From positions 868,001-932,000 of the forward strand of contig AP039689.1 in assembly GCA_051599415.1 (NCBI GenBank): 64,000 nt of DNA, in the 5' to 3' direction. A program made the translations under genes and the position numbers. The notes beneath the pieces were generated by a model. It saw only the letters and a program-made list of their open reading frames with translations, was not told the origin of the DNA and searched no databases. This document shows positions 19,169-23,957 of the stretch, piece after piece; within the stretch, counting starts at the first letter, position 1; each line of letters opens with the position of its first letter. The stretch is from Savitreella phatthalungensis. Taxonomy: Eukaryota.

Positions 19169-20413
19169 ATGCTTTCGACGAGAACAACGGCAAAGGCGCT
19201 ACTCTCGAAGCGCACACCGTGCCTTCTCCAAAACAGATCATTTGCAAAGTTCTCCTACCAGGACCCACTCAACCTTCAGTCACTCCTAACAGAAGACGAA
19301 ATCGCCATTTCAGAAACCGCACGAGACTACTGCCAAGAGAAGCTACAGCCCCGCGTTCTCGAAGCATACCGGAATGAGACCTTTGACAAGAACATCTTCA
19401 AGGAGATGGGCGAACTCGGTCTTCTTGGCGCAACGATCGACGGGTACGGCTGCGCAGGTGTCTCCTCTGTCGCATACGGTCTGATCGCTCGCGAGGTCGA
19501 GCGCGTCGACTCGGGTTACCGGAGCGCCATGAGTGTGCAATCCTCGCTCGTCATGCATCCAATCAACGCCTTTGGCACAGATGCACAGAAGGAGAAATAT
19601 CTACCGAAATTGGCAAAGGGAGAACTTGCCGGCGCCTTCGGTCTCACAGAGCCAAACCACGGCTCAGATCCTGCATCCATGGAGACAACAGCAAAGGAAG
19701 ATGGTGGCAAGTACATCCTGAGCGGCAGCAAGACCTGGATCTCAAACTCTCCCTTCGCAGATGTCTTCATCGTCTGGGCAAAGTGTGCATGGGACGGCAA
19801 AATCCGTGGATTTATCCTCGAGCGCGGTATGAAGGGCCTAGAGACTCCAAAGATCAACGGCAAGCTCTCCCTGCGCGCATCAACCACCGGCATGATCAAC
19901 ATGGACGAAGTTGAGGTACCAAAGGAGAACCTCCTCCCGAAAGTTGAGGGTCTCAAGGGTCCCTTCTCCTGCCTGAACAATGCACGATTCGGTATCGCAT
20001 GGGGTGTTATTGGCGCGCTCGAGCAGTGCGTCGAGCTCGCTCGCCAGTACGCGCTCGACCGCAAGCAGTTCGAGCAGCCACTTGCCAAGTTCCAGCTTGT
20101 GCAGCAGAAGCTCGCAAATGCGACGACTGACATCGGATACGGACTTCTCGCTGCACTCCAGGTCGGCCGCCTCAAAGATGACGGCAATCTCGCGGTCGAG
20201 ATGATCTCGATGATCAAGCGACAGAACTGTGAGCGTGCACTCCAAGGCTCTCGCTCGCTCCAGGAGATCCTAGGCGGCAACGCAGTCGCAGACGAGTACC
20301 ACATCGGTCGTATCTCTCACAACCTTCACGTCGTCGCCACCTACGAAGGCACCTCCGACATCCACTCCCTGATCCTCGGCAGAGCCATCACTGGCATTCA
20401 GGGCTTCTACTAG
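19169..20413 (+). CDS. GCDH: Glutaryl-CoA dehydrogenase, mitochondrial
   Basis: Basic presequence, [41 protein letters not shown], catalytic [18 protein letters not shown]. Confidence 0.95.
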
Positions 20414-20467
20414 ACTAGACTTCAAAACCATCACGCCATGCATACAAATATATCCATACATACTGTA

Positions 20468-22519
20468 TTATACTTTCGTCAGAACGCTTCCGGGCGGATG
20501 CAGTGTCATCCCAGCTTCCTTTGCTAGCGCTCTCGCTAATTCCACAGCCTCCGTCACACCTGCAGGCTCCTTTACAAGTTTTCCTTCCTCATCAATCACG
20601 TCATCTACACCACCTCTGGGACCTTGCAGTCGCGCTGTGCATTCGCCATCATTGTCATCATCGATGGCGTGCGGTGTAGCGAGTGCGTGGGTGTGTGGTG
20701 TGGTGAACAGGAGTTTCGTATCTAGGACGGTGTTCGTGAGGGTGTGAGCGTGTGTACGAGCGCGCTGGCGGAGTGTGTCAGGGATTTGGGGGCACTGGGC
20801 TAGTGCTCTGAGGACACCGACCGCCCAGCCTGCGCGTTCACCTACCGCTCCAGCGACTCCGTACGTCTCATCAAACCCAGCCTGCGTACCACCACGACGG
20901 CCAGAATCAGCACCATCACGCCATCCAGCAATCGCGAGCGACCCAGCCACACGCTCAGACGATCGCACAGCAGCCAGGAGATCACCATCGGTGTGCAGGT
21001 CCCCGTCAGAATCCCAAACGTCGTCATCGGGCGTTATAACAGCAGCAGGAGTGTCGACCGCAGGTGTGATGTCTCTAGATGCGGGGACGCCTTCGGCTTT
21101 GGTTGTTGTGTGCTCGGGTGTGCGAGCCATGCGGTCGGCGCGTTTTTGTAGGAGTGCTTGGCGACGTGCGGCTTTTGCCGCGGCTTGTTGAGGGGTGGCT
21201 GTAAGGGATGGGGGTGCGTGGTTGGGTGTCCAGTTTCCGAGCGATTCTGCGGCGTAGAAATCCATCGGGTAGTTGTCCTGCCAGTCGACGCCTCCCAGGG
21301 CAACCGCAGCCTCGTACGGCGACAGCAGCGGCGCATCGAATGCGTATCCCCAGTCAATCGACAATCGCGGACAAGCGATCTGGATCCAAGCACCGATCCC
21401 GTCCTCTCCGTCGGACATCTGGGCGAGTTTGGATGGGAAGATCTCGGAGAGGAGAACGACGGTGAAGGTCTTGCCAGCTCGCTGCAGCTGCGCTTCCAGG
21501 GACGACAGTACTTTCGGCGACCCTTGGCGACCGAGCGTGCCTAGGATGAGACCGAAGCGTGAGGCCGTTCGGGCTGTGGCGATGGCGTCTCTGCGGAGAG
21601 CCTGCATCTCCGCGTGGCCGTAGTGCTCGCGCGTGAAGGCCCGCGCGTACGGGTCGTACCTGAACGCCGGTACCCCGGCATTCGCAATCATGATGGACTC
21701 CAGGTGGAAGCGGCCGTCCCCCACATAAACGATCGCGTCCACGTCACCGTTCAGCTTCGGCGCCGTGCAACCGAGGATCTCGCCGGGCGACAGTGGCTTT
21801 GCCTGCGGAATCGTGATGTGAAATCCACCGAATGCATCGCCTTCGTCGGCGTGCTCGAGCTGGGATTTGACCGCCTGAATGGAACCGACAAACTGGATCG
21901 TGCCGACCATGGCCAGGTGGGAGCCCTTGTCGAGGTTGCGGCGGAGTGTCTTGACGAGGTGGTCTGCATCGATTGCGATGTCGACGAAAACGTAAAGGGT
22001 CTTGATCCCGGTCACGTCGACTGGCACAAGGCACGAGTGACCGTAGTGCACAAGGAAGTCACAGCCGAGCGCGCGCGCAGTGAAATCGTCCACGCAGCAT
22101 GCACCGTACGTCACATCACCCATCACCAGCGTCGTCACGCCGCAGAATCGCTCGAGAATGTCAGAGATTGTGCATGCAAACATGAGTAAGCCTTCAGGCA
22201 TCTGCAGTGCAACGTGGCTCGCGCCATGCTTCCGGATGTGCCAGATTGTTTTGTGGATCTCGAAGTTGTAGTTTGTAGATATCTGAGCAATTGCAGCATT
22301 CAAAACTTTGTCGTGAAGAATATCGTCTGGGATCGTGTTGACAAAGCGACCGGCAGACGGGCCAGTACGGGGTATCCGCGCAAGAGCACCTGCGTCTTCG
22401 ATGGAGCCCCCACTGGTTGCCGGATCGACATCACCGTCTGGTCGCCGGCGACCGACAAAGCGCCGACGGGGAGCACGCGTCGTCGGTTGTCCGTTCGCCG
22501 ATTCGAGCACCTCCGCCAT
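20468..22519 (-). CDS. DPH1: Diphthamide biosynthesis protein Dph1 fused in frame to a C-terminal Yae1-like deca-GX3 domain
   Basis: Dph1 motifs [65 protein letters not shown]. The ORF continues without a stop into DDDVWDSD and [21 protein letters not shown]...G...G. Likely ATG at 22519. Confidence 0.9.
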
Positions 22520-23255: not shown

Positions 23256-23957
23256 ATGGCGTCGCTCAAAACAAAAACACATTGTCGATCATTGTCGCGT
23301 CTGCCAGTTGTCCAGCCTCATGATTCCATCGTCACTACAACAAGCGGAGCTGAAAGCGCGGGGAGGAAGAGTTTGCTGCGTGCACCGTTAAACACGCCGA
23401 TAGTGACACCGACAGCATCGGTTGCGCATGATAAACGCAACAGTATTGGCGCATGTATTAGAGCCTCCGAGCATTCGGAAAGCCATGCATTGAAGAGTCC
23501 TACAATTTCAAGACCAATCAAATCTTTCCTGCCAACCCCATCTACACAAGTGAAGAAGCAGCCACATAAGACGGTGCTGAGAAAGGATACAGGCCTCGAC
23601 ACTGGGCCGAAATTGAATCGTCGCTCGACGCGAGCGGACTCTGGCAGCGATACGAGGAATGGGATCTACTCGTCTGACGACACGCTTGTTGACGATGACA
23701 TCCTCGCGAGCGCTGGCAGCTACGGTGGCGATGCAGACGAACACCCAGAAAAGGGCGAGAAATCAGGAGATCCGGTGCTCACGCGAGACATGCTCCTGCA
23801 GCGAGACTTTGCAGATCTGAGAGAGTGTCTGGCGGGGATCTCATACGAGGTCGTTCAACAGGGTCGCAGGATACATGAGCTCGAAGTAGAGCTAGCGGAA
23901 TATCGGCGGCATGGCTCAGAACAGAGAGGAAATGCAGGTAACGACCTTGATCAATGA
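23256..23957 (+). CDS. Hypothetical protein with C-terminal coiled coil
   Basis: ORF of about 233 aa from ATG 23256; the C-terminus is heptad-like (LRECLAG..VVQQGRRIHELEVELAEY). 5' exons cannot be excluded. Confidence 0.5.
   Translation: MASLKTKTHCRSLSRLPVVQPHDSIVTTTSGAESAGRKSLLRAPLNTPIVTPTASVAHDKRNSIGACIRASEHSESHALKSPTISRPIKSFLPTPSTQVKKQPHKTVLRKDTGLDTGPKLNRRSTRADSGSDTRNGIYSSDDTLVDDDILASAGSYGGDADEHPEKGEKSGDPVLTRDMLLQRDFADLRECLAGISYEVVQQGRRIHELEVELAEYRRHGSEQRGNAGNDLDQ

Follow-up and report, generated by a model that had tools for sequence, protein, structure and literature searches.

We analyzed a window of 64,000 nt of contig AP039689.1 from Savitreella phatthalungensis, on whose minus strand one open reading frame (ORF) joins the diphthamide enzyme Dph1 to a C-terminal extension related to Yae1. 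Dph1 is the radical S-adenosylmethionine [4Fe-4S] subunit that, together with Dph2, starts diphthamide synthesis on eEF2. To our knowledge, Yae1-Lto1 is the textbook client-specific adaptor of cytosolic iron-sulfur (Fe-S) protein assembly (CIA), and Rli1/ABCE1 is its only known client. An earlier note on this DNA, made from its letters alone, had proposed that the two functions are fused here. Sequence comparisons point to a real, single, intronless DPH1-YAE1 gene encoding a two-module protein, the halves of which are joined by a mostly disordered linker of ∼60 to 80 residues, and to conservation of the same architecture in related fungi.

The ORF is present as the earlier note described it, with 683 amino acids and a stop codon on the minus strand, and its landmarks are correctly placed: the WTPNH motif that ends the Dph1 part closes at position 21218, and the acidic-aromatic motif and the block of GX3 repeats lie downstream within the extension (Table 1). 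Beyond WTPNH the frame stays open for 249 codons, in agreement with the ∼250 codons free of stops and recognizable introns that had been reported, and only 7 of 20,000 mononucleotide shuffles left the extension without a stop. The start and the entire length of the ORF are co-linear in alignment with eight fused relatives, so the gene needs no intron. One in-frame intron candidate in the tail (a GTAGGT ... CTGAC ... CAG pattern) was rejected because it falls on codons for the conserved end of the GX3 block (AGW.VGVL), a segment to which all relatives can be aligned. Stops in the two other sense frames number 1 and 9 in the Yae1 core (76 codons), 9 and 7 in the rest of the tail (110 codons), and 1 and 1 in the 63-codon linker. 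Taken alone, the linker is often open by chance (5,050 of 20,000 shuffles); its translation is therefore unproven from the window alone, and it is the cross-species pattern described below that makes the case for it. The GC content at third codon positions (GC3) is 0.71 in the Dph1 part versus 0.47 to 0.52 in the linker, Yae1 core, and tail.

The N-terminal module matches the whole Diphthamide_syn profile at a score far above the Pfam cutoff of 33.2 bits, and the claim of a complete Dph1 that reaches its usual end at WTPNH thereby stands. An AlphaFold2 model is confident over residues 60 to 434, where the predicted local distance difference test (pLDDT) values are mostly 80 to 97. A search with the whole protein gave 4,397 matches, the best 120 of which were listed; among these, the Dph1 part is 55 to 71% identical to fungal and animal Dph1, and the named matches are nearly all Dph1 or histidine synthase subunit 1. 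Judged by these names, rather than against a direct set of Dph2 proteins, the module is Dph1 and not its Dph2 paralogue. An alignment of 48 Dph1 proteins shows no variation at five cysteines (C141, C142, C163, C251, and C383). The accessible text of PMC11048331 assigns functional roles in yeast Dph1 to C133, C239, and C368; these are spaced by 106 and 129 residues, versus 110 and 132 for C141, C251, and C383 of the window protein. From this spacing, and not from an alignment to the yeast protein, we infer that these three residues are the counterparts of the yeast ligands. The earlier note had named GACCVDD, GHSCL, and ACPRL as the three cluster-binding motifs. GACCVDD (C141) and ACPRL (C383) are retained in our assignment, whereas the GHSCL cysteine (C163) is conserved yet probably not a cluster ligand, and ILGCTAP (C251) probably provides the second ligand instead. 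The first module thus looks like a catalytically complete Dph1.

For the extension, the obvious check was the Pfam domain Yae1_N (PF09811), a model of 39 positions with a gathering cutoff of 27.5 bits. The window protein scores 18.7 bits as a whole and 20.3 bits as the tail alone, over profile positions 1 to 37 of 39. For Yae1_N, the HMMER check proposed in the earlier note hence gives a match below the cutoff, and the outcome that the note had named as refuting, a C-terminal part without a Yae1_N hit, is, read literally, half realized; the homology that the check was meant to establish is upheld by longer profiles. An exhaustive phmmer search with the tail against 1.84 billion representatives returned 15 matches, comprising one fused relative (E value of 1.7e-10) and 14 stand-alone proteins of 95 to 262 residues (E values of 2e-5 to 1e-3, the best 2.2e-5). 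All 14 stand-alone proteins exceed the Yae1_N gathering score (28 to 55 bits), and 2 are named Yae1 by their source. When eight tails were compared with the 14 stand-alone proteins using hhalign, the probability was 99.8% and the E value 8.9e-28 across 149 columns, a span that takes in the acidic-aromatic motif, GX3, and the C-terminal helices and reaches tail residue 244. Furthermore, a hidden Markov model (HMM) of 207 positions, built from the 14 stand-alone proteins without any fused sequence, matches all nine fused proteins (64 to 90 bits) and none of 114 other Dph1-family proteins (best E value of 3.5). Yae1_N is weak on its own, but these longer profiles settle the homology to Yae1. A language-model look-up, used as a lead, gave Yae1_N clusters in 30 of 30 named matches. 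In a word-indexed search with the tail, only the query itself was found among proteins of 375 to 1196 residues and nothing among those of 136 to 436 residues. A sequence search of the PDB (E values up to 1) found no Yae1 or Lto1 chain, only archaeal Dph2-type chains, which appeared because the fused rows were used at full length and so brought Dph1 columns into the profile, and two chance matches.

Both hallmarks that had been read as Yae1 in the extension, the DDDVWDSD motif and the GX3 register, were confirmed. The register has 10 positions at four-residue spacing, 8 of which are Gly (G532, G536, G540, G544, G548, T552, A556, G560, G564, and G568). Across 22 sequences, G532, G536, Q546, G548, F549, D550, and G564 are invariant; with respect to the GX3 Gly positions, four are invariant and two nearly so. 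A [DE][VI][WF] motif lies upstream of GX3 in 12 of the 14 stand-alone Yae1 proteins and in 6 of the 9 fused proteins, the other 3 having N-V-W, N-I-W, and D-A-W. AlphaFold2 predicts the tail as a helical module with a long GX3 helix (pLDDT of 89 to 98). Among the fused proteins, only that of the window carries the ∼30-residue insert separating the Yae1 helices; in the eight relatives, a mean of 1 of its 30 columns is aligned.

The extension is of the Yae1 type and not the Lto1 type, as the earlier note had argued. According to the accessible text of PMC4523923, Lto1 has a conserved C-terminal Trp (Phe in some proteins) and a GX3 region near its N terminus, at G17 to G53. The window protein ends in ...LTKV, the nine fused proteins all lack a terminal W or F, and their GX3 block starts well inside the module, after the acidic-aromatic motif, as it does in the stand-alone Yae1 set. 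We rejected an Lto1 identity for the tail on these two grounds. The extension, with its 249 residues, corresponds to an entire Yae1 homologue. Within the stand-alone Yae1 set, 3 of the 14 proteins (P0127, P0130, and P0135) end in L-S-W, L-D-W, and L-E-W, matching the [LIM]-[DES]-[WF] targeting tripeptide otherwise attributed to Lto1; these endings suggest that some fungal Yae1 proteins may themselves contact the CIA targeting complex.

Between the modules, AlphaFold2 gives pLDDT values below 50 over residues 467 to 517, which we read as predicted disorder. Directly after the Dph1 domain, residues 443 to 465 (21125-21193, minus strand) form a predicted Ala/Arg/Gln-rich helix of 23 residues with M464 at its end; its pLDDT is ∼91 in a model of the tail only and 64 to 79 in the full-length model. 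Linker lengths in the eight fused proteins measured range from 46 to 110 residues, all in frame. M464 is possibly a relic of an ancestral YAE1 start or an internal start. Internal Met residues are not conserved among the fused proteins: the sole Met between the Dph1 end and GX3 lies downstream of the acidic-W motif in one relative (P0009) and three residues past WTPNH in another (P0006). Within alignment columns ∼490 to 560, the otherwise variable linkers of relatives P0003 to P0009 share T-[LM]-P-D-G-[ST] shortly past the Dph1 end and D-T-P-P-[ST]-S-[VI]-S right before the acidic-W motif; the window protein has faint counterparts of both.

A search of related genomes for the same fusion, as had been suggested, yielded eight further proteins, including one from Taphrina deformans and one from a Protomyces cluster. 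The top seven among the best 120 matches are 611 to 672 residues long and cover 82 to 99% of the query. They include T. deformans CCG80788.1, whose NCBI name is only "Diphthamide biosynthesis protein," and one of the other six already bears precomputed PF09811 and PF01866 annotations. All seven align along the tail, and each has a weak Yae1_N match at the aligned place (14.5 to 23.9 bits). The eighth is a 627-residue member of a Protomyces cluster formed at 90% identity. All eight (611 to 672 residues) are co-linear with the window protein over its whole length. Although the fusion had been presented as a feature of this genome, it is shared by at least eight other proteins, and the T. deformans entry has long been public. 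Among the eight relatives, the Dph1 core averages 84% identity, GX3 67%, the linker 40%, and the regions beyond GX3 22 to 30%; between the window protein and these relatives, the corresponding values are 74%, 47%, 20%, and 16 to 31%. The fusion is both old and conserved, uniting S. phatthalungensis, a deep-branching relative of Taphrina, Protomyces, and Saitoella, with the sampled Taphrina/Protomyces clade.

Most Dph1 entries among the best 120 matches are ∼410 to 500 residues long and end 10 to 30 residues past WTPNH. In the same set, the Dph1 proteins of the fission yeasts (Schizosaccharomyces), which belong to Taphrinomycotina, are unfused and 434 to 437 residues long. Two candidates that bear on the distribution of the fusion were rejected. 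A Protomyces "partial" model of 426 residues (P0011) was set aside as an unfused form, given that the same 90% cluster has the fused 627-residue member. A Saitoella complicata model of 628 residues (P0144, GAO46571.1) was set aside as a tenth fusion: its tail is unrelated and has no Yae1 signal, and it leaves the Dph1 sequence just before WTPNH, apparently through an error in the model. The other two models from Saitoella have similar ends, ∼15 to 25 residues past WTPNH. A DPH1 model of 345 residues (P0143) lacks the N terminus, and public DPH1 models in these genera disagree with one another. Two quick trees of the Dph1 domain place the window protein differently. With 29 rows, it pairs with Saitoella (Shimodaira-Hasegawa-like approximate likelihood ratio test support of 86); with 20 rows, its sister group is the fused Taphrina/Protomyces clade (support of 80), and all fused proteins form one clade. 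Because the trees disagree, one origin with loss in Saitoella and two origins are both possible.

Table 1. Features of the DPH1-YAE1 gene and its neighbors in the 64,000-nt window of AP039689.1 (aa, amino acid residues)
Feature	Position	Strand	Details
DPH1-YAE1 fusion ORF, whole	20468..22519	-	683 codons plus stop; TAA at 20468-20470; intron unnecessary
Diphthamide_syn (PF01866), aa 107-418	21266..22201	-	374.9 bits; E value of 4e-112; profile positions 1-302 of 302
C141, first Cys of tandem CC motif; putative [4Fe-4S] ligand (yeast C133)	22097..22099	-	Invariance and spacing
C251 (ILGCTAP); putative second ligand (yeast C239)	21767..21769	-	Invariance and spacing
C383 (ACPRL); putative third ligand (yeast C368)	21371..21373	-	Invariance and spacing
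Post-Dph1 tail and linker, aa 435-497	21029..21217	-	Predicted helix 443-465, then disorder
In-frame ATG (M464)	21128..21130	-	33 codons before DDDVWDSD; position not conserved among relatives
Stretch matched by stand-alone Yae1 HMM, aa 478-593	20741..21088	-	63.8 bits; E value of 1.2e-19; HMM positions 29-131 of 207
Acidic-aromatic motif DDDVWDSD, aa 498-505	21005..21028	-	Typical of Yae1 N-terminal region
Deca-GX3 block, aa 531-573	20801..20929	-	Pfam Yae1_N match at aa 532-568
His/Thr/Asp-rich insert, aa 611-640	20600..20689	-	Between Yae1 helices; pLDDT below 50; predicted disorder
C-terminal helix, aa 653-668	20516..20563	-	Aligned to stand-alone Yae1 C-terminal helix region; pLDDT ∼95
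Acyl-CoA dehydrogenase gene, convergent downstream neighbor	19169-20413	+	Three Acyl-CoA_dh domains
Divergent 233-aa ORF upstream of fusion gene	23256-23957	+	No Pfam match at E values up to 0.001

The fusion gene is flanked by a convergent acyl-CoA dehydrogenase gene (GC3 of 0.67) and a divergent ORF (GC3 of 0.51). The stop codons of the two convergent genes are 54 bp apart (20414-20467, 35% GC), so their 3' untranslated regions overlap or are very short. No second Yae1 signal with an E value below 0.1 was found in the 64-kb window besides the fusion ORF when 1,330 six-frame pieces were scanned.

The reading that we prefer, with a probability of roughly 0.78, is that of a true bifunctional fusion in which each module keeps its usual job and the covalent link is tolerated rather than required. 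As set out in the accessible text of Paul et al. 2015 (PMC4523923), Lto1 attaches to the CIA targeting complex by its C-terminal Trp and to Yae1 by the GX3 motifs, and Rli1 is bound by Yae1. On this model, the Dph1 module would pair with Dph2, and the GX3 helix of the Yae1 module would bind an Lto1 encoded by another gene; with the C-terminal Trp of Lto1 docked on the CIA targeting complex, Rli1/ABCE1 would be recruited for cluster insertion. We infer both activities of the fusion protein, as well as its Lto1 partnership. The fused module is probably the main or only Yae1 of the organism, which presumably has no second YAE1. By analogy with the Tpt1-Yae1 protein of fission yeast, the covalent link is most likely tolerated and not required. 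The main argument that a fusion protein is made comes from the linker, which is poorly conserved yet in frame in every lineage seen, whereas separate genes would not keep it open. A complex prediction between the Dph1 domain (residues 60 to 434) and the Yae1 module (residues 489 to 683), run without controls, scored 0.01 against a mark of 0.34 and counts neither way.

Several observations weigh against this reading. One polypeptide in vivo would follow from conserved open frames, and most of the fused relatives are predicted proteins known here as protein models. The Yae1_N cutoff is missed by the window protein and by all eight relatives scanned (14.5 to 23.9 bits). The window tail is the most divergent of the fused set, as its GX3 identity to the others (47%) and its 30-residue insert indicate. 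The lower GC3 of the extension could reflect weaker selection there or a different history, and the GC3 contrast could reflect differing expression history or selection on two former genes. Saitoella appears to be unfused, and while a single origin of the fusion would be compatible with the data, the position of the window protein relative to Saitoella is unstable.

A less likely alternative, along the lines of the Rosetta-stone reading in the earlier note, is that the Yae1 module is a built-in adaptor which, through the C-terminal Trp of Lto1, brings its own Dph1, along with Dph2, to the CIA targeting complex, so that Dph1-Dph2 would be a second client or eEF2 modification would be coupled to ABCE1 maturation. 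Dph1 is a cytosolic [4Fe-4S] protein, the C-terminal W/F targeting signal is found in none of the nine fused proteins, and the fusion has been kept over deep divergence (84% identity in the Dph1 core versus 40% in the linker among the relatives). The accessible text of PMC10623007 treats as an open question the route by which clients lacking both this signal and an adaptor arrive at the targeting complex, and Dph proteins go unmentioned there ("dph," 0 occurrences). It is true that among the targets examined in PMC4523923, as far as its accessible text goes, only Rli1 depended on Yae1-Lto1; "diphthamide" has 0 occurrences in that text, and since Dph1-Dph2 is not among the targets mentioned there, the claim that Rli1 is the only client does not reach it. 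Also weighing against a built-in adaptor is the Yae1 of Schizosaccharomyces, which is fused to Tpt1, a protein not described as an Fe-S protein in the accessible text of PMC12810181, with a link that is dispensable and for which no advantage was seen; a Yae1 fusion therefore need not point to a client. In addition, most fungal Dph1 proteins among the best 120 matches are ∼410 to 500 residues long, none of the 114 other Dph1-family proteins tested has a Yae1 module, Saitoella does without the fusion, and the majority of eukaryotes are unfused. In a broader proposition, Dph1-Dph2 would be an unrecognized second client that became welded to its adaptor in the Taphrina/Protomyces lineage and in S. 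phatthalungensis, and Yae1, rather than serving a single client, would deliver Fe-S proteins of translation in general (ABCE1 and diphthamide synthase); this seems to us just as unlikely.

Two further explanations concern the product of the locus rather than its role. The gene might mainly yield separate Dph1 and Yae1 proteins if transcription started within it, if polyadenylation took place internally, or if the linker were cleaved. The stretch from M464 to the acidic-W motif is about as long as the N-terminal lead in stand-alone Yae1 proteins, disorder is predicted for the linker, and, according to the abstract of a preprint (bioRxiv 10.1101/2019.12.16.879015), the fused Aco2 gene of Schizosaccharomyces pombe also gives a truncated mRNA by internal polyadenylation. 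We nevertheless judge two products to be improbable, given that, if the genes were separate, a poorly conserved linker of 46 to 110 residues would not have been kept clear of stops and frameshifts in all lineages seen, and that no internal Met is conserved, one relative (P0009) having none upstream of the acidic-W motif. Very improbable is the notion that the extension is a decaying Yae1 copy without adaptor function, with an essential stand-alone YAE1 elsewhere. The Yae1_N scores below threshold in nine of nine fused proteins, the lower GC3 of the extension, and the private disordered insert of the window protein would fit such a relic, but GX3 is 67% identical among the relatives and 47% identical to the window protein, against 22 to 40% in the flanking segments, and six GX3 Gly positions are invariant or nearly so across the 22 sequences. 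The N-terminal motif and C-terminal helix are also retained, and the exhaustive search found no stand-alone homologue closer than the fused one (best E values of 2.2e-5 and 1.7e-10, respectively).

To judge novelty, we searched the literature. No paper was found that mentions Yae1 together with Dph1 or diphthamide, within a coverage that is thin for subscription journals, and none that mentions diphthamide together with Yae1_N. A search combining Yae1, gene fusion, and Taphrina gave nothing relevant among the matches listed, the supplements of Taphrina genome papers being outside the coverage. The earlier statement that the fusion is undescribed therefore agrees with the literature searched, in which no paper joins Yae1 with Dph1 or diphthamide. 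Dph1-Yae1 is a real, conserved, and apparently undescribed domain architecture, new for Dph1, with a second partner for C-terminal fusion of Yae1. A conserved protein in which Yae1 is naturally joined to another translation-related [4Fe-4S] enzyme offers a concrete and cheaply testable hypothesis on how Fe-S clients are recognized. There is also a practical consequence for annotation: because the fused proteins are labeled only as Dph1, an essential CIA factor looks missing from such genomes. Should the link prove neutral, the result would still help to correct annotation and would add a second fusion with an odd partner in the compact genomes of early-diverging ascomycetes, and Dph1-Yae1 and Tpt1-Yae1 together bear on how much weight Rosetta-stone logic can carry.

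Set beside single-function homologues, each module is readily recognized. Like yeast and human Dph1, the first has a full Diphthamide_syn domain with the tandem-Cys motif and two further conserved Cys residues; unlike them, the window protein continues for ∼250 extra C-terminal residues. The second shares with stand-alone Yae1 (S. cerevisiae Yae1 and human YAE1D1) the deca-GX3, the upstream acidic-aromatic motif, the C-terminal helix region, and the lack of a C-terminal Trp. It differs in being tethered N-terminally to Dph1, in missing the Yae1_N cutoff, in having Thr and Ala at two GX3 positions, and in carrying the 30-residue insert. In contrast to Lto1/ORAOV1, the fused proteins have no C-terminal W/F (0 of 9), and their GX3 is not near the N terminus.

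The closest known parallel is the Tpt1-Yae1 protein of fission yeast. In the accessible text of Sarkar, Schwer, and Shuman (RNA 2026, PMC12810181), S. pombe Tpt1 is an RNA 2'-phosphotransferase, a tRNA-splicing enzyme, with a C-terminal Yae1 domain; the architecture is kept in four Schizosaccharomyces species with a variable linker; and the Tpt1 and Yae1 domains are both essential and work when expressed apart, an advantage of the link not being seen. Yae1 is described there as an "alpha-helical coil," matching the predicted fold of the window tail. As in Tpt1-Yae1, the Yae1 module of the window protein sits at the C terminus behind an enzyme that acts on the translation apparatus, across a linker that varies in length and sequence; both proteins are kept across a Taphrinomycotina lineage, and both have tandem GX3 in a predicted helical coil that would pair with Lto1. 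The N-terminal partner differs, being Dph1, a [4Fe-4S] protein, in place of an RNA 2'-phosphotransferase, as does the lineage, which here is Taphrina/Protomyces and Savitreella; moreover, Dph1-Yae1 is known here from sequence and Tpt1-Yae1 from genetics. A lineage-conserved Yae1 module C-terminal to an unrelated enzyme is thus seen, at the ORF level, in nine proteins, and Yae1 has been captured at the C terminus of two different enzymes, Tpt1 and Dph1, and so at least twice, within Taphrinomycotina.

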